Shown here in pieces: positions 471 through 54,612 of a stretch of 64,000 nt of DNA. The DNA comes from Myxococcota bacterium (GTDB lineage Bacteria; Myxococcota_A; Polyangia; Polyangiales; Ga0077539), in the NCBI GenBank assembly GCA_052035985.1, contig JBPOHC010000366.1:1-64000 (forward strand), given 5' to 3'. The notes under the pieces were generated by a model. The model was not told the origin of the DNA, searched no databases, and worked only from the letters and a program-made list of their open reading frames with translations. Every line of letters starts with the position of its first letter. Within the stretch, counting starts at the first letter, position 1. The translations under genes were made by a program, and so were the position numbers.

Positions 471-1184
471 TCAGGGCGTCGCGGGCTTCTTCTTCGCGCG
501 GCGGCGGGCGTTGATCGCTTCGTTGTGCGCGTCGAGCTGGCGCTCGTACGCGTCGAGCACGCCGACCCGCAACGGGTCGCTCTCGGGCAGCGAGCCGGTG
601 AGCGCGAGGGCGAGCGTGGTGAAGGTCTCGTGCCACGCGTCGGAGAGGCGTTCGACATCGACGCCGCCAGGACCCTTCACGGCCACGCCGTAGGGCGCGA
701 GCAGCGCCTCGATGAAGTCGACCGTGTCGCCGAGGTCGAGCGTCTTGACCGCGGGCGCCGCCTCTTTGCTGCGTAGCGCGGCGACAAGGTCGCGCATCCC
801 GCGATACTGCGTGTCCATCGCGCCGCGCGTGAAGTCGATACGCTTGGGAAAGGCCATTCGCCGCAGCGAGCGTGCGGCTTCGAAGCGCCCGGAGGCTCCC
901 TTGTTCAGCGCGACGAGCGGGTCGGTGAAGGTCTGCTCGATGGACTTCAGCGTCCCGTAGAACCCACCGATCGCGCGGTCGGTCGCCGTGTCGACGACGA
1001 GCTTCGGGGCGACGGCCACGCCCGCGAGGGCCTCGTTGGCCGCGACGAACTCACCGATTCGCGAGGCGATGGGCTCCGCGCGTTTGCGCTTCGCGAGGGT
1101 GTCCTCGCGGAGCAGCTCCGCCACGCGTGTTCCCACGTTGCGCTGGCGTTCGACGGTGAGGCGGGCGATTGAAAACAGTGCCAT
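471..1184 (-). CDS. hypothetical protein (237 aa), divergent partner of the NACHT-ATPase gene
   Basis: Only the 3' third of track ORF 471..2843(-) has protein-like composition. ATG at 1184..1182 (MALFSIARLTVERQ...) is preceded by GGAGGT RBS. No recognisable motifs. Confidence 0.55.
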   Translation of the reverse strand: MALFSIARLTVERQRNVGTRVAELLREDTLAKRKRAEPIASRIGEFVAANEALAGVAVAPKLVVDTATDRAIGGFYGTLKSIEQTFTDPLVALNKGASGRFEAARSLRRMAFPKRIDFTRGAMDTQYRGMRDLVAALRSKEAAPAVKTLDLGDTVDFIEALLAPYGVAVKGPGGVDVERLSDAWHETFTTLALALTGSLPESDPLRVGVLDAYERQLDAHNEAINARRRAKKKPATP

Positions 1185-1274
1185 GGGGTACCTCCGTGCG
1201 GAGTCGCGTCGCGGGGGCGGTGGTCGCCCGGTGATTCGGTCGCGCACGCGTGCGACACGCTCCAGATAGCTAAT

Positions 1275-4200
1275 GTGTTGAGGAGGGATCTTTTTCGGAG
1301 GGCGCGTCGATTTTCTTCGCGAGGCGCTCACCGAGGTCCTCCCCGCGTCGGGAGTGTTGCCCCTGTGTGGGCGTTCATGTTCAATCCGCCGACCGTGACC
1401 ACGAGCGAGCCGACGCCCCACGACCTCGTGAGCGACGCCGTGCGTGCCGCGAAGCTCGGGCCTCACGTCGCCGACGCGCTCGTGATGTGGTTGGTGCGCG
1501 GTCTCGAAGACGATCGCCACGCGAAGCTCGATGGGGCGCCGGTAGACCCCTCGACGCGCGCTCGCCTCGCCCGCGTGTTCACCGACGTCGGTCTCGAGAA
1601 CGACGGCACCCCCGAGGAGCGCGAGGAGCGCCCCGGTGTGCTGGCCCGCCTTCTCTCGAACGAGCTCGTGCCGCGTAGGTGGTCGCATGACCGTCGTGGC
1701 GCCGCGCGTCGGGCAGAGGTGGAACTCCCGCGCTTCGTGCTCGTCGGAGGCCCTGGACAGGGCAAGTCGACGCTCGCGCAGCAGCTCACGCAGCAGCACC
1801 GCGCCGCCTGGCTGTCGCCGCGGAAGGAGGGCCTCGATGACATCGCGCGCGTGACGCTCGACGACATCGCAGCCCGCGCTGCCGAAGACTCCCTCGCGAT
1901 GGGTGACGTCGTACGCCTGCCCTTCCTGGTGCCGCTCGGGACGCTCTCGCGATGGCGCGTGACGCGCTCGATCGCGGAGCCTCTCCTGCTGAACTTTCTC
2001 GTCGAGCAGGTGAACGACGCAGGCGGCTCCGTGAGCGCGGAGGAGCTGACAGCGTTGCTCCGCGCGACGCCGTGGCTGCTGGTGCTCGACGGCCTCGACG
2101 AGGTCCCTGCGTCGGCGGGGCGTCGCGAGACGCTCGGGCTTGCAGAGCGCTTCATGCGCGAGCTCGCGGGCTCGAAGGGGATGCTCGTAGGCACCACGCG
2201 TCCGCAGGGCTACCAGGGCGATTTCGGCGAGGTCGACGAGCTGCACCTCGCGGCGTTCTCGACGAAGCGCGCCCTCGCGTACGCGAAGCGGCTGCTCGAA
2301 GACTGGTTCCCTTCGGCGGTGTCGGAGCAGCGTCGGCTGTTGGAGCGGCTCACGACCGCCTCGGCCGACGCGAACACCGCGCAGCTCCTCGGGACGCCGC
2401 TGCACGTGAGCATCCTCACCGCGCTGCTGCACCGGACGCCGGTGGTTCCGCGCGAGCGCTGGCAGATGTTTCACGACTTCTTCGCGTCGATCTATCAGCG
2501 CGAGGTCGACCGGCCGCACCCCTACGCCGAGCTCCTGAAGCGGTGGCGTCGCTACATCGAGCCGATGCACCACGTCGCAGGGCTGCATCTTCAGGCCCTC
2601 GGCGAGCGGGCTGAGGGGGCGGTGGCGCTCCTCACGAAGCCCGAGCTGGTGCGCATCGTCGACGCGCAGTTGCAGATCGGAAAGTTCACCGAAGAGCGCC
2701 GCCGCGAGCTCGTTCACGACATCGTCGAGGCCGCGTCCGATCGGCTCGTGCTGCTCGCGCAGGTCCGCGACGGTCGCTACGGCTTCACGTTGCGCTCCAT
2801 CCAGGAATTCATGGCCGCCGAGGCGCTCACGGGAGGCGCGCACGAGGCGGTCGTGCGGCGCGCGAGGCGCCTGGTGCCGCTACCCTACTGGCGCAACGTC
2901 GTGCTGCTCATGGTGAGCAAGGTGTTCTCGCCGGGGCAGTCAGCGCTCGCGCCGCTCACCGAGGCGCTCACGATCGGTCTCTGCGATCGGCTCACCGAGC
3001 GCGACGAGGCCACGGTGTACGTCCCAGGCGACGACGCGGCGTTTGCGAGCGATCTGCTCGGCGAAGGGTCGGTGACGGTCGATCCCGGCGTGACGCGCGC
3101 GGTGCTGGAGCGCGCGCTCACGATCATCGATCAGCCAGATGCGGAGCGTGCGAAGCAACTCGTCACCGCGCTGTCTCAGGTGGTCGGCGACGAGGATTGC
3201 GCGAGGGAGCTCGACGCGATCGCGCGTCCGCTACGCGCCGCGCGTTTGGGGAACAGCGACGACCTCGGGGCATGGAGGTTCGCGATCGGGCTCGCGGACG
3301 CAGGGATCGCGTGGGCGAACGCGCTCGCGACGAAGCGGTGGCCTGTGGATGCGGAGGCGCGAAGGTTCGTTGCGCTGCATTGTAGTGGGAGTCCGTGGGC
3401 GTTGTCGAAGTGGGTCGAAGAGAAGGTGATCGAGGACCTCGACACGTTTGGTCCGAACGAGATGATGAAAATCGAGCCGCTTTTTGGGTGGCCCAAGGCT
3501 CCCCGGCTCTGGGTTTCGTGCGAGCCGCAACTGACCTCGCTTCGTCGTATCACTGTGTCTCCGGAAGACGCTCCGATTGCTTTCCAACTGCGCCCTCTTG
3601 ATTCGGCGGGAGTGCCAGCGGTTGTTCTGGCAGAGCTGGCGCGTCTCACGCGTTGGCAACCGTGGTCGTGGATCGCTCGGTTCTCTTCTGCGCCGAGCCC
3701 AGAAGTGCTCTCGGAGGCGCTCGCGTACTTTGCGAACGAGGCGTCGCCCGAGCAGGTCGAACGCGCGAGAGCCGTAGCGCCGTGGCCGATCGCCGCCTGC
3801 CTCGCATGGGCCGAGTCGCCAGAGGAGCTACGGACGCTCTCCGAGGCTGCTGCCAGAGGCGAACTTGGGGACCTCGGGGTGTGGCGCGCTGCCGAGTCGC
3901 GGTGGGCGGCCCACCCGACGACGCTTCGCGAGTCCGCTCCGGATGGAGGCGCGTTGCCGTTCTCCGTCTCGATTCGCGATCACGGTTTTGTTCCGTGCGG
4001 AGAGGCGAGGATTGCGTGGGACCAGAGCGCGATCGAGGACCCGGACGTCGTCGCAGACCAGACCACGAGAGTTGTGCTCGAAGTGCTCCAGACCTCGCGA
4101 CGGCGAGCGGTCGCGCGTTGGGCGGCGCTCGTGCTCGACGTTCTCGTTGAGGACGCCTGGCCGGTCCGGTCAGTCGTACCGCTCTCACTCATGGAGCGGC

Positions 4201-6140
4201 TCTTAGATGCCTCTCACGCGGATATCGGGATGCTCACCCGCATCGTGGCTCTTGCCGAGAGAGACGCGCTGGTCGAGCTCCTCGAGGCGAGGCGCGATCG
4301 GGTTGCGGTCAGCGATTGGACCCAACCAGACCCCATCAGCTCCTTGCTCGAGGCTCATCCTGCTGCGCCTGTGTTGTTGCTCTTAGCGCTGCGAATGGTG
4401 AGCTGGGATGGGCACCTGCGAGTTCGCATCCCCGCTGCGACCTTCGTGATGGCGGAGAGCCTCGCTCCCGAAGATCGAGCCGCAGTCGCTGCGTTCGAAT
4501 TCGCGCGCGGCGGTGCCCTCGACATCGCGCGGCTGGCCTCGCTCCTCGTCGTCAGCGATCTCGCCGTTGAAGCGGCGTTGGCGATCGCTTTCGACGACTC
4601 CGCCCGCGGTGCTTCTCTCGCGATCGAGCTCCTCGCGCGGCTCCCCGACTCTAAGAGCGATCTCCGCGCTCGTTGCACCCGCCTGCTCCTCCAAGCCCGA
4701 AAGCTCCAGTGCAGCGAACTCCTCGTGCCCTCCGAGTGGAAGGAACTCTCGCTTCCGCGCCCTTCACCGCCGGAGCCGTCGAGCGCGTCGCCCGTCGCGC
4801 CGGTTCACATCGAGAGCCTGCGCATCGAGAACGTGCGCGCGTTCGACGCCTTCGAACTCCCCGTCGCCTCGTCGGGCGACAACGGCGCGTGGGTCGTGCT
4901 CCTCGGCGAGAACGGGACGGGCAAGAGCACCGCGCTCCGTGCCATCACCCTCGCCCTTGCCGAGCCCGACTACGCGACCACCATGTTCACCGAGTCGGCC
5001 TCGCGCGCCACGTGGCGACGCGACCCCGAGAAGCCCGCGCGCGCCACGGTGAGCCTCCACGGCCAGTCGTACACGGTCACGCTCGGCACGGGCGACACGG
5101 GCCGGGAGACGCTCGTCGCGTCGAGCGATCCGCCCAACGGCTCCGCGCGTGAGCGGCCCTTCCTCGTGGCCTACGGATGTCGGCGCGGCGCGGCGGACGG
5201 AGGCCGCGATCAGAAGGTCGACGTCGAGCCCCTCGACGGAATCGGTACGCTCTTCGACGCGCCGGGGCGCGCGCTCGTCATCGCCGAGGCGTGGCTCAAG
5301 GACCTCGCGCTCGCGCAGCTCCAGAACGAGCCCGGCAGCGCGCACCTCTACGACGTCGTGCGCGAGGTGCTCGTCGGCGACGGGACCACGGAGGGAATCC
5401 TCCCCGGCGTGCGTGCGATGAGAATCTCGGGCGGCACGGTGTGGTTCGAGGGGCCCGACGTGGGGACCTCGCCGCTCGCAGCGCTCAGCGACGGGTACAT
5501 CACCACCGCGGGCTGGGTCATCGACCTGATGGCGCGCTGGATCCACCACCGACGCACCCGCAAGGAGCTCGTGTCGCGCGACTTCACGAGCGAGATGCGC
5601 GGCGTGGTGCTGCTCGACGAGATCGACCTGCACCTGCATCCGCGCTGGCAGCGGGAGCTCATCCCCGCCGTGCGGAGGGTCTTTCCGAAGCTGACCTTCG
5701 TGGTGACGACGCACAACCCGCTGACCGTGATCGGCGCGCGCGAGGGCGAGGTGTTCGTGCTGCGTCGGCGCAAGGGCGCGTCGGGCGTCGAGGCGCGTCG
5801 GCTACACCTGCCCGTTGGAATGCGCGCGGATCAGGTGCTCACGGGGGAGTGGTTCGGCCTCGCGACGACGCTCGACCCCGAGACCTTCGACCTCTGGGAG
5901 AGGCACTACCGCGCGCTCCGCAGCGGCAAGAAGGCGGGCGACCCCGAGCTGCGAGACCTGGAGCGCGAGCTCGCGCGCCGTCTGGGGACCTACGCGAGCA
6001 CGTCGCTCGATCGCATCGCCCTCGACGTCGCGGCCGAGGTGATGGGAGACCGCCCGAAGGACCTCTCGGCATCGGAGCGCGAGGCCGCGCGCGCGAGCAT
6101 CCTGGAGTGGGTGAAGCACCGCGCGGAGGACGCGTCGTAA
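1275..6140 (+). CDS. giant STAND/NACHT-like NTPase fused to C-terminal PtuA/AAA_21-type ABC ATPase (Septu PtuA-like), 1621 aa (alternative ATG start at 1377)
   Basis: N-terminal Walker A VLVGGPGQGKSTLAQQL and Walker B LLVLDGLDEV (NACHT signature). Long helical A/L-rich middle. C-terminus IESLRIENVRAFDAFELP ... VVLLGENGTGKSTALRAI (Walker A) ... VVLLDEIDLHLHPRWQ (Walker B) ... FVVTTHNPL (H-loop), typical of AAA_15/21 OLD/PtuA ATPases. Track start at 1275 is GTG; an AT-richer stretch sits just upstream. Confidence 0.8.
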   Translation: MLRRDLFRRARRFSSRGAHRGPPRVGSVAPVWAFMFNPPTVTTSEPTPHDLVSDAVRAAKLGPHVADALVMWLVRGLEDDRHAKLDGAPVDPSTRARLARVFTDVGLENDGTPEEREERPGVLARLLSNELVPRRWSHDRRGAARRAEVELPRFVLVGGPGQGKSTLAQQLTQQHRAAWLSPRKEGLDDIARVTLDDIAARAAEDSLAMGDVVRLPFLVPLGTLSRWRVTRSIAEPLLLNFLVEQVNDAGGSVSAEELTALLRATPWLLVLDGLDEVPASAGRRETLGLAERFMRELAGSKGMLVGTTRPQGYQGDFGEVDELHLAAFSTKRALAYAKRLLEDWFPSAVSEQRRLLERLTTASADANTAQLLGTPLHVSILTALLHRTPVVPRERWQMFHDFFASIYQREVDRPHPYAELLKRWRRYIEPMHHVAGLHLQALGERAEGAVALLTKPELVRIVDAQLQIGKFTEERRRELVHDIVEAASDRLVLLAQVRDGRYGFTLRSIQEFMAAEALTGGAHEAVVRRARRLVPLPYWRNVVLLMVSKVFSPGQSALAPLTEALTIGLCDRLTERDEATVYVPGDDAAFASDLLGEGSVTVDPGVTRAVLERALTIIDQPDAERAKQLVTALSQVVGDEDCARELDAIARPLRAARLGNSDDLGAWRFAIGLADAGIAWANALATKRWPVDAEARRFVALHCSGSPWALSKWVEEKVIEDLDTFGPNEMMKIEPLFGWPKAPRLWVSCEPQLTSLRRITVSPEDAPIAFQLRPLDSAGVPAVVLAELARLTRWQPWSWIARFSSAPSPEVLSEALAYFANEASPEQVERARAVAPWPIAACLAWAESPEELRTLSEAAARGELGDLGVWRAAESRWAAHPTTLRESAPDGGALPFSVSIRDHGFVPCGEARIAWDQSAIEDPDVVADQTTRVVLEVLQTSRRRAVARWAALVLDVLVEDAWPVRSVVPLSLMERLLDASHADIGMLTRIVALAERDALVELLEARRDRVAVSDWTQPDPISSLLEAHPAAPVLLLLALRMVSWDGHLRVRIPAATFVMAESLAPEDRAAVAAFEFARGGALDIARLASLLVVSDLAVEAALAIAFDDSARGASLAIELLARLPDSKSDLRARCTRLLLQARKLQCSELLVPSEWKELSLPRPSPPEPSSASPVAPVHIESLRIENVRAFDAFELPVASSGDNGAWVVLLGENGTGKSTALRAITLALAEPDYATTMFTESASRATWRRDPEKPARATVSLHGQSYTVTLGTGDTGRETLVASSDPPNGSARERPFLVAYGCRRGAADGGRDQKVDVEPLDGIGTLFDAPGRALVIAEAWLKDLALAQLQNEPGSAHLYDVVREVLVGDGTTEGILPGVRAMRISGGTVWFEGPDVGTSPLAALSDGYITTAGWVIDLMARWIHHRRTRKELVSRDFTSEMRGVVLLDEIDLHLHPRWQRELIPAVRRVFPKLTFVVTTHNPLTVIGAREGEVFVLRRRKGASGVEARRLHLPVGMRADQVLTGEWFGLATTLDPETFDLWERHYRALRSGKKAGDPELRDLERELARRLGTYASTSLDRIALDVAAEVMGDRPKDLSASEREAARASILEWVKHRAEDAS

Positions 6141-45628: not shown

Positions 45629-45702
45629 GGATCCGGAACCTCGAGAGGCAGAGGCGGCGGCTCTTACCCGTCGACGTGAGGGTTCAAGTCCCTTCGGATC
45701 TA
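45629..45702 (+). tRNA. tRNA-like, anticodon CTT (Lys) by manual fold
   Basis: Acceptor ggatccg/cggatct. Anticodon stem ggcgg/ccgtc, loop ctCTTac. T-arm gaggg-ttcaagt-ccctt. CCA encoded at 45703-05. D-region irregular. Confidence 0.4.
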
Positions 45703-45760
45703 CCAACCGCACCGCGCAGCGCGCGCTGCGGGCAACGCCTGGCACGAGGGTGTTGCGAAT

Positions 45761-45831
45761 TGCCCGATGGTCCAATGGCAAGATGGCCGGCTCTGAACTG
45801 GTTGATCCTGGTTCGAATCCAGGTCGGGCAA
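45761..45831 (+). tRNA. tRNA-Gln(CTG)-like
   Basis: Perfect acceptor tgcccga/tcgggca. U8. Anticodon loop ctCTGaa. T-arm cctgg-ttcgaat-ccagg. Weak D-stem. Confidence 0.5.
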
Positions 45832-45969
45832 CCGTCTGGCGGAGGGGGACACGTCCCCGCCACTCCGCGGATCTCTGACAACACGGGGTTGATGAGCGTC
45901 AGGCGCGACACCATGCGCGCCGCGACGCGAACGAAGGCGCCCTCCGCCACGATGAGGGAGGGCGCGCAC

Positions 45970-46042
45970 TGCGGGGTAGCTCAAAGGTAGAGCGGTCGGC
46001 TGTTAACCGGCGTCCGTGTGGGTTCGATTCCCTCCCTCGCAG
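45970..46042 (+). tRNA. tRNA-Asn(GTT)
   Basis: D-arm gctc-aaaggta-gagc. Anticodon stem gtcgg/ccggc, loop ctGTTaa. T-loop ttcgatt. 3' CCA encoded. Confidence 0.6.
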
Positions 46043-46053
46043 CCATCGTGAAC

Positions 46054-46124
46054 GGGGCCATCGTCCAAGGGGAAGATGTCTGCATGGCATGCAGGAGATG
46101 AGGGTTCGACTCCCTCTGGTTCCA
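46054..46124 (+). tRNA. tRNA-Ala(GGC)-like
   Basis: Acceptor ggggcca/tggttcc (2 G-U). Anticodon stem tctgc/gcagg, loop atGGCat. Perfect T-arm gaggg-ttcgact-ccctc. D-arm degenerate. Confidence 0.45.
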
Positions 46125-46140
46125 CTGTTTGATTCGCTTC

Positions 46141-46213
46141 GCCCATCGAGGCTGTCGGAAGAAACCGTCGGGCTACGAACTCGAAGTGCGTGGTTCAACT
46201 CCACGGATGGGCG
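46141..46213 (+). tRNA. tRNA-Arg(ACG)
   Basis: Perfect acceptor gcccatc/gatgggc. Anticodon stem tcggg/ctcga, loop ctACGaa. T-arm cgtgg-ttcaact-ccacg. CCA encoded. Confidence 0.6.
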
Positions 46214-46220
46214 CCAGTAT

Positions 46221-46293
46221 CAGCGTGTAGCTCAGTCAGAAGAGCGCCTGCTTCGGGAGCAGGAGGCCGCGGGGGCAGGTCCCGCCTCGCTGA
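46221..46293 (+). tRNA. tRNA-Pro(CGG)-like with non-canonical T-loop
   Basis: Canonical D-arm tagctcagtcagaagagc. Anticodon stem cctgc/gcagg, loop ttCGGga (G37). T-stem gcggg/cccgc but T-loop ggcaggt lacks TTC. Confidence 0.45.
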
Positions 46294-46324
46294 CCGCGTC
46301 GCAAGACGCTTCGCCTCGCATCAC

Positions 46325-46397
46325 GGCCCTGTCGTCTAGAGGTTCAAGATCGCTGGCCCTCAACCAGCAGAGGCGGGTTCGAGTCCCGTCAGGGTCG
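46325..46397 (+). tRNA. tRNA-Glu(CTC)-like
   Basis: Acceptor ggccctg/cagggtc. Anticodon stem gctgg/ccagc, loop ccCTCaa (C at 33). T-arm gcggg-ttcgagt-cccgt. Confidence 0.5.
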
Positions 46398-46410
46398 CCG
46401 TTTCAGCATC

Positions 46411-46483
46411 GCGGACGTAGTGTTCAACAGCAGCACATCGCGGCCCCATCGCGAGAGCTCGGGTGCAAATCCCGACGTCCGCA
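46411..46483 (+). tRNA. tRNA-Gly(CCC)-like
   Basis: Perfect acceptor gcggacg/cgtccgc. Anticodon stem tcgcg/cgcga, loop gcCCCat. T-arm tcggg-tgcaaat-cccga. Confidence 0.5.
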
Positions 46484-46534
46484 CCGGAGCGCGCACGCGG
46501 CGCCGTCCAAGCCGAGCGTTGCGCATTCCATCAA

Positions 46535-46606
46535 GGTCCCGTCGTTCAACGGATAGGACAGCCGATTGTCGATCGGCCAACGCGGGTTCGATTCCCGTCG
46601 GGACCG
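46535..46606 (+). tRNA. tRNA-Asp(GTC)
   Basis: Acceptor ggtcccg/cgggacc. D-arm gttc-aacggata-ggac. Anticodon stem gccga/tcggc, loop ttGTCga. T-arm gcggg-ttcgatt-cccgt. Confidence 0.7.
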
Positions 46607-46622
46607 CCTTCTGTCTCTCTCT

Positions 46623-46695
46623 GCCCATCGAGGCTGTCGGAAGAAACCATCGGGTGGCGAACCCGAAATGCGTGGTTCAACTCCACGGATGGGCG
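46623..46695 (+). tRNA. tRNA-like Arg paralogue with aberrant anticodon loop (possible pseudo-tRNA)
   Basis: Near-identical to 46141..46213 in acceptor, D- and T-arms, but anticodon loop is tgGCGaa (G at position 33). Confidence 0.35.
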
Positions 46696-46713
46696 CTCTC
46701 TGCCTCTCGCCTC

Positions 46714-46786
46714 GACCCTGTCATCTAACGGCTCAGGATGCCTGGTTCTCAGCCAGATCATACGGGTTCGAATCCCGTCAGGGTCG
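46714..46786 (+). tRNA. tRNA-Glu(CTC)
   Basis: Perfect acceptor gaccctg/cagggtc. Anticodon loop ttCTCag with U33. T-arm acggg-ttcgaat-cccgt. Confidence 0.6.
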
Positions 46787-46802
46787 CCGCCTCACCGCCT
46801 CT

Positions 46803-46875
46803 GCGGACGTAGTGTTCAACAGCAGCACCTCACAGTGCCATCGTGAGAGATCGGGTGCAAATCCCGACGCCCGCA
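46803..46875 (+). tRNA. tRNA-Gly(GCC)
   Basis: Paralogue of 46411..46483. Anticodon stem tcaca/cgtga (4 bp), loop gtGCCat (U33, A37). T-arm tcggg-tgcaaat-cccga. Confidence 0.6.
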
Positions 46876-46893
46876 CCGCTTCTGCGCCTCTCT

Positions 46894-46966
46894 GGTCCTG
46901 TCGTTCAGTGGTCTAGGACGGCCGATTGTCGATCGGTCAACGCGGGTTCGATTCCCGTCGGGACCG
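46894..46966 (+). tRNA. tRNA-Asp(GTC), second copy
   Basis: Paralogue of 46535..46606. Anticodon stem gccga/tcggt, loop ttGTCga. Identical 3' flank cgccttctgtc. Confidence 0.65.
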
Positions 46967-46986
46967 CCTTCTGTCACTGCCTTCTT

Positions 46987-47055
46987 CGTGGTCCGATCAG
47001 CATCGAGCCCTGTCTTACAAACAAGGCGAACCGGGGGCGGCACCCGGGGCCACGA
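46987..47055 (+). tRNA. tRNA-like, anticodon TAC (Val), reduced D-arm, non-canonical T-loop
   Basis: Acceptor cgtggtc/ggccacg. Anticodon loop ctTACaa. T-stem ccggg/cccgg with loop ggcggca. CCA encoded at 47056-58. Only 69 nt. Confidence 0.3.
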
Positions 47056-47059
47056 CCAT

Positions 47060-47132
47060 CAGTGTGTAGCTCAGCCAGGAGAGCGCCGGTTCGGGGGACC
47101 GGAGGCCGCGGGGGCGGAACCCGCCACACTGA
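47060..47132 (+). tRNA. tRNA-Pro(GGG)-like with non-canonical T-loop
   Basis: Perfect acceptor cagtgtg/cacactg. D-arm gctc-agccagga-gagc. Anticodon stem ccggt/accgg, loop tcGGGgg. T-loop ggcggaa. CCA encoded. Confidence 0.45.
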
Positions 47133-47145
47133 CCACTCTCCTCAT

Positions 47146-47216
47146 GGGGCGGTAGTTCAACGGTAGAACGCCTGACTGTGGCCCAGGCAATATGGGTTCG
47201 ATTCCCGTCCGTCCCT
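47146..47216 (+). tRNA. tRNA-His(GTG)-like
   Basis: Acceptor ggggcgg/ccgtccc. Perfect D-arm gttc-aacggta-gaac. Anticodon loop ctGTGgc. T-arm atggg-ttcgatt-cccgt. Confidence 0.5.
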
Positions 47217-47246
47217 CTGTTTTCAAAGCACTTCACAGCCTCTCAT

Positions 47247-47319
47247 GGCCCTGTCGTCTAATGGTAGAAGATCGCGGATTTTCACCCCGCGGACACGGGT
47301 TCGATTCCCGTCAGGGCTG
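47247..47319 (+). tRNA. tRNA-Glu(TTC)
   Basis: Acceptor ggccctg/cagggct. Anticodon loop ttTTCac (canonical Glu loop). T-arm acggg-ttcgatt-cccgt. CCA encoded at 47320-22. Confidence 0.65.
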
Positions 47320-47332
47320 CCATGAATCGCTT

Positions 47333-47403
47333 GCGGGTATGGTGTAGCAGCAGCACCGGTGGCCTCCGCCCACCATGCGCGGGTGCGAATCCCGCTGCCC
47401 GCT
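47333..47403 (+). tRNA. tRNA-Gly(TCC)-like
   Basis: Acceptor gcgggta/tgcccgc. Perfect anticodon stem ggtgg/ccacc, loop ccTCCgc. T-arm gcggg-tgcgaat-cccgc. Confidence 0.5.
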
Positions 47404-47517
47404 CCGTCTGATCGTCGACCCCGTCATCACGCCGCCCCCAATTCGTAGATAGCGACGTACCCGTCTCGTACACGGGCCAGTGCCGTGCAAGTCGGCATGG
47501 GGGCTCTACGTCACCGC

Positions 47518-48666
47518 TCAGCCCATCGCGCGCAGACGCCGCGCGGCCTCTTCGAGCACGTCGTCGTCCTTCGCGAAGCAGAAGCGCAGCAGCGTCTCGC
47601 CCACGGGGTCACGGTAGAAGCTCGCACCCGACACGCTCGCGATCTTCGCCCGATCAAGCAGGACGAAGGCCGCCTCGCGCGCCGTCTTGCGTTCGAAGCG
47701 CCGCGCGTCGGCCAGCACGTAGTACGCGCCCGCGGGCACATACGGGGTCAGGCCCGCGTCGGCGAGCGCGCTGCACAGGACGTCGCGCTTCTTCTGGTAG
47801 CTCGCGCCGAGCCCGCGAAAGTACGCGTCGGGCATCGCGAGCCCCTCGGCGCACGCGTGCTGGAGCGGCGTCGGCGCGCACACATACAAGAGGTCGTGCG
47901 CCACCGCGATGCGCCGCGCGGCCTCGGGGGGAGCGATCGCGTAGCCCACGCGCCAGCCCGTCACCGAGAAGGTCTTCGAGCAGCCCGAGAGCGTGATCGC
48001 GCGGTCGCGCATCCCAGGGCGCGTGGCCAGCGGGACGTGCTTCGCGCCCTCGTACACGATGTGCTCGTAGATCTCGTCGGTGATCACCACGAGGTCTCGC
48101 GCGTGGGCGAGCGCGCCGAGGGCGTCGAGCTCCGCGGGCGTCCACACCTTGCCGTGCGGATTGCCCGGGGTGCACACCACGATCGCGCGCGTGCGCTCGG
48201 TGACGGCGCTCGCGAGCGCGTCGAAGTCGACCTCCCACGTCGGCGGACGAAGCGGGACGAGCACCGGGCGCATCCCGAGACCCACCACCGTGTTGTAGTG
48301 ATAGCCGTAGTAGGGCTCGAAGAGGATCACCTCGTCGCCCGGGTCGAGGAGCGCCAGGCACGCCGCGGCGAAGCCTCCCGTCGCGCCGAGCGTGACCACC
48401 ACCTCGGAGCCCGGGTCGACCGCGAGCCCATAGTCTCGATCGACGCGCTTCGCGATGGCCTCCCTCAACGCGGGGACGCCCTCGGGCGGCGCGTACACGG
48501 CCTTGCCTGCGTCGATGGCCGCGTGCGCCGCGAGGGCCACGGGCGCGGGCGTCGGGAGATCGCAGACGCCTTGACCGAGGTTGATTCCGCCGACCGCGTC
48601 GCAGGCGCGCGTCATGGCGCGGATGTCGGAGACGGCTGCGTTGGCGAGGCGTGATCCGATGCGCAT
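47518..48666 (-). CDS. pyridoxal-phosphate-dependent aminotransferase, class I/II (AspC/YbdL-like)
   Basis: 382 aa. ...GINLGQGVCDLP...ITDEIYEHIVYEG...SKTFSVTGWRVGY (Lys-containing PLP motif SxSK). Overlapping ORFs on both strands are GC artefacts. Confidence 0.85.
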   Translation of the reverse strand: MRIGSRLANAAVSDIRAMTRACDAVGGINLGQGVCDLPTPAPVALAAHAAIDAGKAVYAPPEGVPALREAIAKRVDRDYGLAVDPGSEVVVTLGATGGFAAACLALLDPGDEVILFEPYYGYHYNTVVGLGMRPVLVPLRPPTWEVDFDALASAVTERTRAIVVCTPGNPHGKVWTPAELDALGALAHARDLVVITDEIYEHIVYEGAKHVPLATRPGMRDRAITLSGCSKTFSVTGWRVGYAIAPPEAARRIAVAHDLLYVCAPTPLQHACAEGLAMPDAYFRGLGASYQKKRDVLCSALADAGLTPYVPAGAYYVLADARRFERKTAREAAFVLLDRAKIASVSGASFYRDPVGETLLRFCFAKDDDVLEEAARRLRAMG

Positions 48667-48757
48667 AGGCGGCGGAGTCTATCGAAACCTTCGCCGCGAA
48701 GGCCACGCGCGATTCGTCGAGGCATCTCTTCGCAGGGGCCGCGAGAGTGCTGATACG

Positions 48758-50066
48758 ATGCCCACCGTGAGCCAACGAAGCACCTCCCTCGCGGTCGTCA
48801 CGGGCCGCGGTCTGCCGCTGCTCCTCACGCTCGTCGCGTGCGCGCCGAAGAACCTCAGCATCGGTCCCGTCGACCACGACGTCGCCGTCGTCGACGCGTC
48901 TACGAAGGACACGGGCGCGCCGCCCACGGACGTCACGCGCCCCGACTCGACGGTCGCGAGCGACGTGCCCGAGGCCGACATCTACGTCGACGTTCCGGTG
49001 GTGATCGACCCCGATCAGCCCCTCGCCGACGTGGCGTCTGACAGGGCCAACGACGCGCCGCGACCGCTCGATGCGACGGGCGTCGACGCGGGGCCGCTGC
49101 CCAACCTCATCCCCGTGATTTCGAACCCGCAGATTCAGGAGCGCACCTTACCTCGCGACCTCGTGCGAGGTGATGGAGGGCTGCACGATGGCGGGCGATC
49201 GGAGGCTGCTCCGCTTCGACCTCTCGACCCCCAACATCGGCGCGGCGGACCTCTACCTCGGGGCGCCCACGATGGCGGGGCGTCCGCCGATGATGTTCGA
49301 GTACGGCACCTGCCACATGCACTGGCACCTGCGCGGCTATGCGGACTATCGGCTCATGACCCTCGACGGTCGCGAGGTGGGCCGCGGTCACAAGCAGTCG
49401 TTCTGCCTGCTCGACTCGGGGCGCTACATGACCATGGGCGCCGACATCCCCGCGGCCATGCGATACAACTGCGGCAACCAGGGGATTCACGCGGGCTGGA
49501 TGGACGTCTACGGCCGCAGCCTCGACTGCCAGTACGTCGACATCACGGGCGTGCCTCCGGGGCGCTACCGCATCCGCGCGCAGATCAACGTCGAGCGCGT
49601 CGTGGCCGAGAGCGACTACGCCGACAACGAGAGCTTCTACATGATCGACGTCCCGCCGCCGCCCGACTCGGATGCGGGCGCGGGCGACGCGGGCGTGTCG
49701 TTCGACCCGACGCTCGCGTGCTCGGGCGCCACCGAAGGCACCGGACGCAACTGCGGCTGGCAGGTCGAGGGACCCACGCGCACCTGCACCCCCGGCGTGC
49801 GCGTCGAGGTCGGGTGCAACCAGGGCTGCATGCCTCCGCTCGGGCTCTGCGCGGGCGATCCCATGATCCGCATCTGCCCCGGCGGAAGCCCCTGCCAGGA
49901 CCTCACCGCGCTCACCGCGAACGACGACTCGTGCCCCGGCGACGGAGGCCCCACGAGGCTCTGCTCGCTCGCGGCCTTCACGTGCCCGGCGAGCGGGCGA
50001 TACACCATCCTCACCGGCGCCTACCGCGCCGGCATGGCCTACGAGTGTCACCTCGAAACACGCTGA
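48758..50066 (+). pseudogene. lysyl-oxidase (LOX)-like copper amine oxidase lipoprotein, copy 1, interrupted by an apparent +1 frameshift near 49148
   Basis: Frame-2 N-terminus (ATG 48758, lipobox LLLTLVAC, acidic linker ...NPQIQERT) continues in frame 0 as YLATSCEVMEGCTM..., matching copy 2 (PLIQERVFLATSCDVLEGCTM) once the single extra base t49148 is removed. LOX signature CHMHWHLRGYADYRL and conserved Cys pattern downstream. Confidence 0.55.
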
Positions 50067-51160
50067 TCGCAGCCCTCTCCGTCGCAGCCTGCACGTCGAC
50101 GGACCCTCCCCGCGGAGACGCCTCGGCCGACGCCCGCGACGCCGCGAGCGACCTCGTCGACGCCCGCGACGTCACCTCCGATGTGTCATTGCCTGACCTT
50201 CGCGCCGAGCTGCGCTTTCCGCTCATTCAGGAGCGGGTCTTTCTGGCGACGTCGTGCGACGTGCTCGAGGGGTGCACGATGCCGGGGCGACGGCGGCTGC
50301 TGCGCTTCGACCTCACGACGCCCAACCTCGGCGACGGCGACCTCGTGCTCGGTCCGCCCGTGGTCGAGGGGCGCGCGCAGCCGGGCTTCGAGTGGGGCGA
50401 GTGTCACGGACACTTTCACTTCTCGGGCTACGCGGACTATCGCCTCGTCGCGCTCGACGGGCGCGAGGTCGCGCGCGGACACAAGCAGGCCTTCTGCCTC
50501 GAAGACACCGACCGGGCGCGCGTCGGCGGGCCGCTCCTCTCCGACGCAGAGCGCTTCAACTGCGACCGTCAGGGCATCCACGCGGGGTGGCAGGACGTCT
50601 ACGGCCGCGGCCTCGACTGCCAGTACGTCGACATCACCGACGTGCCCGCGGGGAGGTATCGCATCCGCGCGACGGTGAACCCCGAGGGGCGCATCGCCGA
50701 GTCGGACTACAGCAACAACGTCGGCGAGTTCGAGGTCGAGGTCTCCGCGTGGAACCCCGACGCCGGCGTGTCCGACGCGGGCGTCGACGCGGGCGTCGTG
50801 AACCCGACGCTCCCCTGCACCACGAGCGAGCAGGGGGCGCACCGCGACTGCGGCTGGGACGCGGAGCCTTCTGCGCGGCGCTGCACCCCGGGCGCGAGCG
50901 TGACCCTCGGGTGCGACGCGCGCTGCGGCCCCACGCTCGGGTTCTGCGCGGGCGACACGATGCTCCGCGTGTGTGAGGGCGAGGCTCCGTGCGACGACCT
51001 CCGCGCGCTCGCGACGAACGACGACGCGTGCGAGGCCGACGGCGCGCGCGACCCGTGCTCTCGCGTCACCTTCACGTGTCCCGCGTCGGGGTCGTATCGC
51101 GTGCTCGCCGGGGCGTACCGCGCGGGGGCGGCGTACACCTGCCGCGCCGAAGCGCGCTGA
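50045..51160 (+). CDS. lysyl-oxidase (LOX)-like lipoprotein, copy 2 (371 aa)
   Basis: GTG 50045 gives MSPRNTLIAALSVAAC lipobox signal. CHGHFHFSGYADYRL, GHKQAFCLED, GIHAGWQDVYG..LDCQYVDIT, Cys-rich C-terminus, ~60% identical to copy 1. Lies within track ORF 48581..51160. Confidence 0.7.
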   Translation: MSPRNTLIAALSVAACTSTDPPRGDASADARDAASDLVDARDVTSDVSLPDLRAELRFPLIQERVFLATSCDVLEGCTMPGRRRLLRFDLTTPNLGDGDLVLGPPVVEGRAQPGFEWGECHGHFHFSGYADYRLVALDGREVARGHKQAFCLEDTDRARVGGPLLSDAERFNCDRQGIHAGWQDVYGRGLDCQYVDITDVPAGRYRIRATVNPEGRIAESDYSNNVGEFEVEVSAWNPDAGVSDAGVDAGVVNPTLPCTTSEQGAHRDCGWDAEPSARRCTPGASVTLGCDARCGPTLGFCAGDTMLRVCEGEAPCDDLRALATNDDACEADGARDPCSRVTFTCPASGSYRVLAGAYRAGAAYTCRAEAR

Positions 51161-51196
51161 GCGCCGACGGAGCATCTCAGTACCGTGACGAGGACC

Positions 51197-52351
51197 ATGC
51201 GCGCTTTGCAGATCGTGATGTTTCTTGCGGTGATGTGCCTGATGACCTGGGGCCTCCACCACTACATCTGGGCGAGGTTCGTGAGAGACCCCGAGTGGCC
51301 CGCGCTCTGGACGCGGGTGGGCACCTGGGCCCTCGTCGCCGCGGGCGTGATGGTGCCCCTCGGGATGCTCCTCAACCGCGCGCTCCCTCGCGCCGTGATG
51401 GCGCCCATCGCGTGGGCCGTGTTCTCGTGGATGGGCCTGGCGTTCTTTCTCTTCCTCGGCCTCGCGACGACCGACGGCGCGCGGGCGCTCATGGCCGCCG
51501 TGTCGGGCGCGCAGGACCCCGAGCGTCGGCGCTTCATGGCGCGGCTCATGGCGAGCGCCGTGGGCGTCGCGGGCCTCGCCGCGGGCCTCTTCGCGATGCG
51601 AACCGCCCTCGCCCCGTGGACGATTCGCACCGTGCGCGTGCGCGTGTCGGGGCTCCCCGAGGCGCTCAAGGGCATGCGCATCGTGCAGCTCACCGACGTG
51701 CACGTGGGGCCCACGATCGGTCGAGATTTCATCAGCGGGATGGTGCGCGCGGTGAACCGTCTCAACCCCGACGTGATCGCCATCACGGGCGACCTGGTTG
51801 ATGGGCCCGTGTCGGAGCTCGGGGTTCACGTCGCGCCGCTCGCCGACCTCCGCGCGAAGCACGGGACCTTCTTCGTCACGGGCAACCACGAGTACTACTC
51901 GGGCGTCGCGGAGTGGGTCGCGGAGCTCGGTCGCCTCGGCGTGCGCGTGCTCGACAACGAGCGCGTCGCCGTGGGTGAGGGCGAGCACGTCATCGACCTC
52001 GCGGGCGTCAACGACTGGAGCGCGCGACGCTTCGACGTGTTCAAGCCCGACCTCGCGAAGGCCCTTCACGGAAGGGATGTGGCGCGTCCCGTGGTGCTCC
52101 TCGCGCACCAGCCCAAGATCATCAAGCAGGCCGCCGAGGCGCGCGTCGACCTCGTGCTCTCGGGGCACACGCACGGCGGACAGATCTGGCCCTGGACGAA
52201 GCTCGTCGCCCTCGATCAGCCCTACCTCGCGGGCCTCCACCGCGAAGAGCACACGCAGATCTACGTGAGCGAGGGGACGGGCTACTGGGGCCCTCCCATG
52301 CGCATCGGCACCGCGCCCGAGATCACCGAGATCATCCTCGATCGCGCTTGA
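51197..52351 (+). CDS. membrane-anchored calcineurin-like metallophosphoesterase (YkuE-like)
   Basis: Four N-terminal TM helices. ...LTDVHVG...ITGDLVD...GNHEYY...GHTHGGQ metal-binding motifs. Confidence 0.8.
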   Translation: MRALQIVMFLAVMCLMTWGLHHYIWARFVRDPEWPALWTRVGTWALVAAGVMVPLGMLLNRALPRAVMAPIAWAVFSWMGLAFFLFLGLATTDGARALMAAVSGAQDPERRRFMARLMASAVGVAGLAAGLFAMRTALAPWTIRTVRVRVSGLPEALKGMRIVQLTDVHVGPTIGRDFISGMVRAVNRLNPDVIAITGDLVDGPVSELGVHVAPLADLRAKHGTFFVTGNHEYYSGVAEWVAELGRLGVRVLDNERVAVGEGEHVIDLAGVNDWSARRFDVFKPDLAKALHGRDVARPVVLLAHQPKIIKQAAEARVDLVLSGHTHGGQIWPWTKLVALDQPYLAGLHREEHTQIYVSEGTGYWGPPMRIGTAPEITEIILDRA

Positions 52352-52443
52352 TGCGGGCGCTCGTGACACGCCCCCGTGGAGCGTGTTACGAAAAATCAAA
52401 ACGTGTCACCGATCCGTTGTGATGCTTGCGGCGTAGCGTGGCG

Positions 52444-54612
52444 ATGAGTTCGCGCGACGCCGAAAGGGTAACGCTCCGCGCCGCGACGCTCGCGTTCGCC
52501 GCGCTCGGGGTGTGCCTCGCGCGCGTGGCCTCGGCGCAGCAGACGCCCGAAGCGCAGGCGCCGCAGCCGCCGCAGACAGCACCGGCGACGCAAGCGCCGC
52601 AGGCCGAGCAGGTCAACGAGGGTGCCGAGGGCGGCGAGGGCGGCGAGGCGACCGTGCGCGGAGAGGGGCCTCGTCGCGCGGCGTCGGACTACACCTTCGA
52701 CGTGAGCAGCCTGCGACCCGTGCCTCGGAGCACGGCGGCCGATCTCCTCTCGCTCGCGCCGGGGTTCTTTCTCTCGCAGCACGGCGGCGACGGAAAGGCC
52801 CACCAGCTCTTTCTCCGCGGCTTCGACGCCGACCACGGGCAAGACGTCGAGTTCTCCGTGGGCGGCGCGCCCGTCAACGAGGTCTCGAACGTCCACGGGC
52901 AGGGCTACGCCGATCTCAACTTCATGATCCCCGAGGTCGTCGATCGCGTGCGCGTGCTCGAAGGCCCCTACGACCCGCGTCAGGGAGACTTCGCCGTCGC
53001 GGGCTCGGCGCGCTTCGACCTCGGCGTCGCGGACCGCGGCGCGCTCCTCAGGGCCTCGTACGGGATGTTCAACGCGCAGCGCCTCGTCGGCGTGTTCGCG
53101 CCGCGCGGCGAGCGCCGCGAGACCTTTCTCGCGGGCGAGCTCGCGCGCTCCGACGGCTACGGGCAGAACCGCGCGTCGTCGCGCGCCGCCGTGATCGCCC
53201 AGTACGCCAGGGAGCTCGCCGGGAGCGCCACCGTGCGCGTGCTCGCGACCTCGTACGCGGGCCGGTGGGACAGCGCGGGCGTCGTGCGCGAGTCGGACTA
53301 CCTCCGCGGGCGACAGGGCTACTTCGACACCAACGACACGCACCAGGGAGGCTTCAGCGCGCGGCACGGCGTGGTCGTCGAGGTGGTCGTCCCGCGCGGC
53401 GCCGACCGCACCGCGGTCTCGCTCTTCGGCGCGCTCCGCGAGCTGCGCGTGCGAGAGGACTACACGGGCTACCTCCTCGACCCGCGCGGCGATCGCTACG
53501 AGCAGACCTACGACGCCGTCACCCTCGGCCTCGCGGCTTCGCACCGTCACACGTTCCGTCTCGGCGGCCTCGCGCACGCGTGGGAGGTGGGCGTCTCCGC
53601 GCGCCACGACGTCACCACCCAGGCGATGCACCGACAGCGCGCCGCCGACGACGTGAACTACGCCGCCATGACCGACGCCGACGTCGACGCGACGGACGTG
53701 GGCCTCTACGGCGATTTCGAACTGCGCCTCATGCGCTCGCTCTCGCTCCGCGGAGGTCTTCGCGCCGACGGGCTCGGCTACCAGATCGACGATCGGATGC
53801 CGCGCGCCAACACACGCACGAGCACTCCGGAGCCGCGCGGGCGGCGCGACGCGCAGGGCTTTCAGCTCGGTCCGCGCGCCACCGTCGAGTGGGAGCCCCT
53901 CCGCGGACTCTCGCTGATCGCCGCGTACGGAAAGGGCTTCCGCTCGCCGCAGGCGCTCTCGCTCGGCGAGGGAGAGAGCGCCCCCTTCGCGACGGTGCAC
54001 TCGGGCGAGGTGGGCGTGCGGTACCGCGGCGCGCGGGTCAACGCGACGGTCACGGGCTTCGGCACGCACGTCGACCGCGACCTGGTGTTCGAACCCACGC
54101 AGGGACAGAACCTCGTGAGCGACGCCACCGCGGCCACCACGCGCCTCGGCGTCGCGGCCTCGGTGCGGGTGATCCCCCTGCGCGGTCTCGAAGTGGTCGC
54201 GAGCGGAACGTGGGCCCGCGCCACCTACGACTCGACGGGCAACCTCGTGCCGTATGTTCCTCCGCTCGTGGGGCGCCTCGACGCGACCTTTCAGCGCGCG
54301 GTCGGCCGCGTGTTGTCGCAGGAGGTCACCGTCTCGTCGGGCCTCGGCGTGACCGCGCTCGGCCCGCGCGCGCTGCCCTTGAGCGAGTTCTCAGACCCGG
54401 TGCTGCTCATCGACCTCGGGCTGAGCGGCCGCGTGGGGCCCGTGGAGCTCGGCGTCTCGATGCGCAACCTCACCGACGCGCGCTGGGAAGACGGCGTCTT
54501 CAACTACGCCTCGAACTTCGATCCCTCGGTCGCGGGCAGCCGCGTCCCCGCGCGTCACTTCTCCGCGGGCAGACCCTTCACCGCCCTCGCCTCGCTCACC
54601 CTGCACCTGTGA
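52444..54612 (+). CDS. TonB-dependent receptor-like outer-membrane beta-barrel protein
   Basis: Signal peptide. Plug-domain motifs (FLRGFDADHGQDVEFSVGGAPVNE). Long beta-barrel region with periodic aromatic/Gly pattern. Start ATG 52444 inside the longer track ORF. Confidence 0.7.
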   Translation: MSSRDAERVTLRAATLAFAALGVCLARVASAQQTPEAQAPQPPQTAPATQAPQAEQVNEGAEGGEGGEATVRGEGPRRAASDYTFDVSSLRPVPRSTAADLLSLAPGFFLSQHGGDGKAHQLFLRGFDADHGQDVEFSVGGAPVNEVSNVHGQGYADLNFMIPEVVDRVRVLEGPYDPRQGDFAVAGSARFDLGVADRGALLRASYGMFNAQRLVGVFAPRGERRETFLAGELARSDGYGQNRASSRAAVIAQYARELAGSATVRVLATSYAGRWDSAGVVRESDYLRGRQGYFDTNDTHQGGFSARHGVVVEVVVPRGADRTAVSLFGALRELRVREDYTGYLLDPRGDRYEQTYDAVTLGLAASHRHTFRLGGLAHAWEVGVSARHDVTTQAMHRQRAADDVNYAAMTDADVDATDVGLYGDFELRLMRSLSLRGGLRADGLGYQIDDRMPRANTRTSTPEPRGRRDAQGFQLGPRATVEWEPLRGLSLIAAYGKGFRSPQALSLGEGESAPFATVHSGEVGVRYRGARVNATVTGFGTHVDRDLVFEPTQGQNLVSDATAATTRLGVAASVRVIPLRGLEVVASGTWARATYDSTGNLVPYVPPLVGRLDATFQRAVGRVLSQEVTVSSGLGVTALGPRALPLSEFSDPVLLIDLGLSGRVGPVELGVSMRNLTDARWEDGVFNYASNFDPSVAGSRVPARHFSAGRPFTALASLTLHL

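Follow-up and report, generated by a model that had tools for sequence, protein, structure and literature searches.

We analysed a 64-kb window (the whole stretch of DNA under study, with a G+C content of 70.7%) from an uncultured soil-type myxobacterium of the order Polyangiales. Two adjacent genes on its plus strand, here called copy 1 and copy 2, encode proteins of the lysyl oxidase (LOX) family. An initial annotation, made from the letters alone, had proposed adjacent LOX genes here, and both their coordinates and their motifs were confirmed by three-frame translation and by matches to the Pfam family PF01186. Copy 2 (50045–51160, with a GTG start at 50045 and a stop at 51158–51160) is intact and encodes 371 amino acids. 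Copy 1 is split between two reading frames by a single-base insertion at 49148–49150, where the window has TTAC and relatives have TTC or TAC. Copy 2 begins, with its GTG, before copy 1 has ended, and the two genes share 22 nucleotides (nt; 50045–50066), an overlap that the initial annotation had also reported.

The 5′ part of copy 1 (48758–49149) lies in frame 2, and its translation runs from ATG 48758 to ...NPQIQERT, ending at 49147. It holds the putative signal peptide, a lipobox L-V-A-C (the codon of Cys28 is 48839–48841), a linker of about 100 residues rich in Asp, Ala, Pro and Val, and the first strand of the catalytic domain. This part corresponds to residues 1–130 of the repaired protein (copy 1 translated with the extra base left out), with 100% identity. 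The 3′ part (49151–50066) lies in frame 0, reads ...LATSCEVMEGCTM... and ...LATSCEVMEGCTMAGDRRLLRFDL..., and stops at TGA 50064–50066. It contains the LOX catalytic domain at about 49182–49631 (PF01186, residues 142–291 of the repaired protein). The codons of the putative copper histidines H186, H188 and H190 start at 49314, 49320 and 49326, and those of the putative cofactor residues Lys212 and Tyr251 lie at 49392–49394 and 49509–49511; all five residues are in invariant alignment columns. A cysteine-rich C-terminal domain occupies 49704–50063.

Copy 2 has the same parts. Its lipobox V-A-A-C ends in Cys16 (codon 50090–50092), its LOX domain (PF01186) lies at about 50285–50737, and its cysteine-rich C-terminal domain at 50801–51157. 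The phmmer alignment to human LOXL2 (structure 5ZE3) places the copper histidines H121, H123 and H125 from 50405 onwards, Lys147 at 50483–50485 and Tyr186 at 50600–50602. Exactly the same copy 2 protein (P0001) is also present in other assemblies.

The two lysyl oxidase proteins and the age of the pair

Both proteins matched PF01186 well above its cut-off of 20.4 bits, with 108.8 bits (E 3.7e-31) for repaired copy 1 and 115.9 bits (E 2.5e-33) for copy 2. No NCBIfam model matched either of them. The motifs CHMHWH and GHKQSFCL of copy 1 correspond to CHGHFH and GHKQAFCL of copy 2, and LDCQYVDIT is present in both. The two proteins are about 57% identical over some 310–325 residues, in an alignment that spans the IQER(T/V)(F/Y)LATSC strand through to the C-terminus.

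The phmmer search matched human LOXL2 at E 1e-28. In this alignment H121, H123 and H125 of copy 2 fall on the CHRHYH copper site of LOXL2, where CHMHWH of copy 1 also aligns. K147 falls on the lysine of GHKASF and Y186 on the tyrosine of DMY, and the equivalents in copy 1 are K212 and Y251. We take the LOXL2 counterparts to be H626, H628 and H630, K653 and Y689. The copper histidines, the cofactor lysine and tyrosine and six cysteines of the catalytic domain were invariant in alignments of 34 and 38 sequences. Structure prediction, which the initial annotation had suggested as a check, returned the LOX catalytic fold: the AlphaFold2 model of copy 2 (mean predicted local distance difference test score, pLDDT, 81.6) had LOXL2 as its top structural match. 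In every feature of sequence and fold that could be checked here, copy 1 and copy 2 belong to the lysyl oxidase family.

The proposal that both are lipoproteins was also supported. Both proteins begin with a short basic stretch and a hydrophobic one and then reach a lipobox of the form [LVI][ASTVI][GAS]-Cys, assigned by pattern inspection; copy 1 has LVAC, ending in Cys28, and copy 2 has VAAC, ending in Cys16. In 35 of 38 homologues a lipobox-like motif occurs at a distance of 11–32 residues from the N-terminus, and its cysteine forms an invariant alignment column. This anatomy indicates that both proteins would be exported and N-terminally lipid-anchored. In each protein the lipoprotein signal, cysteine included, comes first and is followed by an acidic, flexible linker; the LOX domain comes next, and an all-beta, cysteine-rich module of about 115 residues forms the C-terminus.

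This module makes up the last 115–120 residues and contains 10–12 cysteines and an NDD(S/A)C motif. The C-terminal domains of copy 1 and copy 2 had no match in Pfam or NCBIfam, and a profile search of Protein Data Bank sequences gave only non-significant matches (E about 0.2–0.3), to the mannose-6-phosphate receptor domain. When 1.84 billion cluster representatives were searched exhaustively with phmmer, 417 proteins matched the module at E ≤ 1e-3, and 20 of these 417 were sampled for their Pfam domain context. The module was C-terminal to a LOX domain in six of the 20 and N-terminal to an ADYC domain (PF20032) in eight; one had it after a peptidase M1 domain and one before a Kelch propeller. 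Another, P0136, had as its sole match a sub-threshold pre-peptidase C-terminal (PPC) domain, a beta-sandwich module of collagen-binding type (PF04151; 20.8 bits against a cut-off of 25.9), and the remaining three had no Pfam match. An AlphaFold model of the C-terminal domain alone, built from a two-sequence alignment, reached a pLDDT of 50.6 and was unusable for a fold search. In our reading the C-terminal domain is a mobile binding module, all-beta and rich in disulfides, that may resemble PPC; it may also be a candidate new domain family.

The distribution of LOX genes was examined with a pattern scan of one genome per species. This confirmed 300 LOX-encoding stretches. Almost all of the best 80 of the 300 were from Myxococcota, namely Polyangiales metagenome-assembled genomes (MAGs), many Sorangium, Sandaracinaceae, Kofleriaceae and Haliangiales, and some genomes had several LOX loci. 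The initial annotation had called bacterial LOX homologues uncommon and patchily distributed. That description holds across bacteria but not within Myxococcota: most of the 300 stretches belong to Polyangiales, Sorangium, Sandaracinaceae and Kofleriaceae, often with several per genome.

That the two genes are tandem paralogues, as had been proposed, was substantiated by other genomes. The pair is kept in six other Polyangiales MAG loci (L004/L006 on one contig, L005, L007, L008, L009 and L010), while at the matched locus of more distant genomes only one LOX gene is present. The 22-nt overlap recurs unchanged in the genes called for L002, L004, L085, L086 and L088. A divergent class I/II aminotransferase gene (47518–48666, minus strand; PF00155, E 1.6e-63) forms the left edge of the conserved synteny block, and a gene for a membrane-anchored calcineurin-like metallophosphoesterase (51185–52351, plus strand; PF00149, E 3.5e-14) lies 24 nt 3′ of copy 2. 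Both accompany the LOX pair in exactly the pair-bearing loci L004–L010, and the metallophosphoesterase gene adjoins the pair in L002 as well. In a neighbour-joining tree, copy-1-type and copy-2-type proteins formed separate clades, with longer branches in the copy-2 clade. These separate clades, together with the recurring pair, overlap and flanking genes, indicate that the duplication is therefore old and that both copies have been kept. As judged from its sequence, the locus consists of two old tandem paralogues that encode predicted lipid-anchored, exported enzymes of the lysyl oxidase family.

The frame break in copy 1 and its origin

The frameshift in copy 1, first noticed in the initial annotation, was recovered independently. 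A seven-state hidden Markov model of codon-position G+C, run over all 64 kb, switched from plus-strand frame 2 to plus-strand frame 0 exactly at 49149/49150. Every other state change of the model was a gene end, a strand miscall within one open reading frame (ORF) or the joint of two same-frame genes, as checked against stop codons, and no other unexplained frame break was found in the 64-kb window. The frame break is therefore real in the sequence and the only one in the window.

At the site the present assembly reads CACCTTACCTCGCG. The nearest relative, L002 (the Logan assembly of run DRR274955, 99.0% identical over 48290–52841), reads CACCTT-CCTCGCG (ERT-F-LATSC). Its copy 1 is intact at 435 amino acids, and the insertion in the window is the sole indel inside copy 1 between the two. 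TTC is also found at the site in L005 (Polyangiales MAG STL-MYX7, about 95% identical), in the MAG L085 (about 98%) and in the other MAG loci L006–L010 (about 75–85%). In L086–L089, from a more distant lineage about 90% identical locally, the codon is TAC (Tyr). The alignment to orthologues that the initial annotation had recommended thus has all these relatives reading through the site in frame. Eleven such loci in other assemblies are 99% to about 80% identical and uninterrupted here, and all orthologues examined, with identities down to about 57%, likewise have a single frame. The frameshift occurs in the present assembly only.

We also noted damage elsewhere in L085. This MAG (GCA_964268295.1, contig CAXXZZ010000013.1, 1.36 Mb) is of the same species as the window, with 97.9% identity. 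Its copy 1 carries an independent insertion of 5 nt (CCCAT; window position 49055), its aminotransferase gene has an additional C (window position 47633), and its TonB-dependent receptor gene is fragmented by dozens of small indels (window 52797–54585). These breaks look like local assembly or polishing error.

The initial annotation had restored the frame of copy 1 by skipping T49148. The single extra base stands, and the choice of base does not: where the nearest relatives have ACC TTC CTC, the window has ACC TTA CCT C, so that the extra base is most parsimoniously A49150, which restores Phe as in L002 and L005, rather than T49148, which restores Tyr. Deletion of T49148 does yield an allele that occurs naturally, in L086–L089. 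On the sequence the placement of the indel is limited to 49148–49150. The 3′ part of copy 1 contains no stops and no further indels relative to L002 or L005.

Two artefactual origins were considered and rejected. A mis-assembly between the paralogues is contradicted by their DNA identity of only about 72% and by the flanks: on either side of the insertion they are the same, letter for letter, as in L002 and L005. A generally error-rich assembly is contradicted by the codon-position model and by the lists of indels relative to L005 and L085, in which one uncompensated coding indel belongs to the window.

A programmed frameshift, in which the ribosome would pause on a rare TTA codon, at ACC-TTA-C, and slip by +1 to read copy 1 at full length, is very improbable. 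The insertion does create a TTA, a rare codon in a genome of 70.7% G+C, and a +1 shift at this point would give the full-length protein. However, the orthologues have a single frame with TTC or TAC at the site, so that no shift site is conserved there; re-pairing of the P-site codon ACC on CCT would be poor; and no stimulatory element was seen, although no search was aimed at one. Programmed +1 genes such as prfB, for release factor 2, likewise need a one-base shift for the full-length protein. The prfB shift site is conserved across species. Unlike in prfB, the shift here is absent from every relative, and because no relative needs one at this site, programmed frameshifting can in practice be discounted. 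What copy 1 has is an ordinary indel of this assembly alone, either a recent mutation or a sequencing error, with no special mechanism. The ranking given in the initial annotation, with pseudogenisation first, then an indel error, and programmed shifting last, was right in view of the relatives, which are all in frame.

The substitutions bear on the age of the change. Compared with L002, copy 1 has eight synonymous and two non-synonymous codon differences. Both non-synonymous ones are in the N-terminal linker, and the six differences downstream of the shift are all synonymous. Compared with L005, the 50 differing codons of copy 1 comprise 33 synonymous and 17 non-synonymous ones, of which only four non-synonymous ones lie outside the linker; the 62 differing codons of copy 2 comprise 32 and 30, respectively. 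That copy 1 is an old, decaying post-duplication pseudogene, with copy 2 as the sole functional gene of the lineage, can hardly be believed on these numbers. It could appeal to the disruption of copy 1, at different positions, in two of about 12 assemblies of the species complex (the window and L085) and of copy 2 in none. But copy 1 is full-length and intact in L002, L004–L010, L086–L089 and many metagenome proteins, its catalytic residues are invariant, and L085 has breaks in unrelated genes as well, so that its break in copy 1 is probably an error. We therefore rejected an old pseudogene because the substitutions are mostly synonymous and the orthologues are intact.

Between the two remaining origins, we lean slightly towards a real, very recent, strain-private loss-of-function mutation in copy 1. 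The inserted A is the sole uncompensated coding indel relative to L005 over 13 kb, and relative to L085 it is again the sole one outside the damaged stretches of L085 itself. It does not lie in a homopolymer run, an intact paralogue adjoins copy 1, and the rest of the 64-kb window is free of frame breaks.

Several points weigh against a mutation. Of the two paralogues, copy 1 is conserved better and, across the clade, is subject to the stronger purifying selection, so that its loss is unexpected. The codon that holds the inserted base varies between TTC and TAC among relatives, and TTAC could be an artefact of a consensus drawn from a mixed population. L085, of the same species, has frame breaks that resemble assembly errors, including a different one in copy 1. 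The frameshift allele was absent from metagenome contigs of the Joint Genome Institute (JGI), and so was the intact allele, which leaves the two scans (one for either allele, one for the frameshift only) uninformative. The weighing of mutation against error rests on assembled sequences.

Several of these points lend weight to a sequencing, assembly or polishing error, with both LOX genes intact in the organism, and we regard this as a serious possibility, if somewhat short of an even chance. It would account for a copy 1 that has no further decay, for the six silent differences from L002 after the shift and for relatives that are all intact at the site. TTAC is, moreover, the union of the natural alleles TTC and TAC, as consensus calling from mixed strains can yield, and indel errors are evident in another public MAG of the lineage, namely L085, whose aminotransferase gene is broken, whose TonB-dependent receptor gene is shredded and whose copy 1 has the 5-nt insertion. 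Yet the 64 kb contain just this one frame break, the inserted base is not part of a homopolymer, and no other variants of the L086 type are seen around the site, so that a chimeric consensus is not otherwise visible. On balance, a recent mutation remains our slightly preferred explanation.

Predicted products, proposed working and neighbouring genes

Frame 2 is open from 48581 to 51160 on the plus strand, and copy 2 is also in frame 2. The frameshift thereby makes one long ORF, of 859 amino acids from TTG 48581 or 800 from the copy 1 ATG at 48758. Because of this arrangement, ribosomes that start at copy 1 would enter copy 2 in frame. Their product from the copy 1 ATG would consist of the signal and linker, about 300 out-of-frame residues and the whole of copy 2, 800 residues in total. 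The out-of-frame stretch is rich in Arg, Pro and Gly and includes LPRDLVRGDGGLHDGGR... The catalytic part of copy 1 would be made only from internal starts, at GTG 49170 or at ATG 49173 or 49188, and this product should be inactive because it has neither the signal peptide nor the first strand with Cys136. Copy 2 would still be able to start at its own GTG. The truncated 292-amino-acid gene call P0132 arises from the frameshifted copy 1. For annotation, the 800–859-amino-acid "fusion" ORF and the 292-amino-acid P0132 are artefacts of a single base, and copy 1 is best annotated as frameshifted, probably intact in the species. Loss of copy 1 would be tolerated because the copy 2 gene is intact, and it would not be a regulated event.

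From the chemistry of the LOX family and the anatomy of these proteins, a working can be proposed. The exported and lipidated enzyme would bind copper through its three histidines, and the conserved lysine and tyrosine would become cross-linked, by self-processing, into lysine tyrosylquinone (LTQ), the cofactor. The enzyme would then oxidise primary amines to aldehydes, with release of H2O2 and ammonia; these amines would be either free or the lysine side chains of peptides. The linker may act as a flexible stalk, with a length of about 100 residues for copy 1 and some 40 for copy 2, and the C-terminal module would probably target the substrate or a surface. It is conceivable, although we think it rather unlikely, that the surface LOX pair and its mobile modules form a system that cross-links proteins or supplies H2O2 and aldehydes, acting on the organism's own extracellular matrix or on prey. 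If this were true, the strain in the window would be a natural knock-out of the better-conserved partner, and the system would be a functional analogue of animal LOX matrix cross-linking in a bacterium of multicellular type.

No terminator-like site was found between copy 2 and the metallophosphoesterase gene. This gene and both LOX genes probably form one transcription unit, and copy 1 and copy 2 are probably translationally coupled. A deep functional linkage of the LOX genes to their neighbours was considered but not strongly indicated, since the adjacency of the aminotransferase and metallophosphoesterase genes is limited to the clade with the tandem pair.

Directly upstream of the aminotransferase/LOX block, ARAGORN found 14 tRNA genes packed into 1.8 kb (45629–47405, plus strand), 11 of which pass the Rfam gathering score. 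The array contains duplicated Glu-CTC and Asp-GTC genes, together with Arg-ACG and an unusual Arg-GCG, and it is also present in L005 and L006, with differing copy numbers. On the other side of the block, the window differs from the 99%-identical L002 by an 18-nt in-frame indel (52610–52627) where the TonB-dependent receptor gene (52426–54612) encodes an N-terminal region rich in Ala, Gln and Pro, and more length variation relative to L005 was seen at 52463–52500. Far from the LOX genes, a stretch of 1.2 kb (3339–4516) within a long plus-strand ORF (1173–6140) lacks the typical G+C signature of codon positions, and the composition model labelled it "non-coding". A large protein may have a low-complexity or repeat part here, or the ORF may represent two genes joined by an open frame.

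Comparison with known lysyl oxidases

The two proteins share with animal LOX, represented by human LOXL2 (5ZE3), the His-x-His-x-His copper site known as the copper talon, the cofactor lysine in GHK(A/Q)xFCLED and the cofactor tyrosine in D(M/V)Y. On the alignment and the 5ZE3 disulfide map, the cysteines of three disulfide pairs of the LOXL2 catalytic domain are conserved here, and those of C663–C685 and C732–C746 are missing. Unlike LOXL2, copy 1 and copy 2 have no SRCR domains and no propeptide; they have instead a bacterial lipoprotein signal and an acidic linker at the N-terminal side, and the cysteine-rich module after the catalytic domain. Collagen or elastin in the animal sense cannot be the substrate.

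The LOX proteins of Sorangium, in the same order Polyangiales, have the same class of architecture, with a LOX domain and a cysteine-rich C-terminal domain. Sorangium loci were recovered with the same query at 42–46% identity, with WP_012233967.1 itself outside this comparison, and they have a single LOX gene where the window has an overlapping pair. HTU-LOX of Haloterrigena turkmenica, which has been studied experimentally (PMC6452851), is likewise a prokaryotic PF01186 protein and shares with copy 1 and copy 2 the conserved histidines and the lysine and tyrosine of the cofactor. However, it is archaeal and probably horizontally acquired, and it has neither a cysteine-rich tail nor a tandem partner.

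A report of 2015 (PMC4448552) described LOX genes in Bacteria, Proteobacteria among them. In 2019 their frequency in Actinomycetes and "some Deltaproteobacteria" was described, as was the cysteine-rich tail of the Sorangium enzyme (PMC6452851), and the role of prokaryotic LOX has been called "enigmatic" (PMC6452851; PMC4448552). Bacterial LOX and the cysteine-rich tail were thus already known. What is new here is modest: the predicted lipoprotein anchor, the conserved overlapping tandem pair within a gene block of an uncultured Polyangiales clade, and the modularity of the tail.

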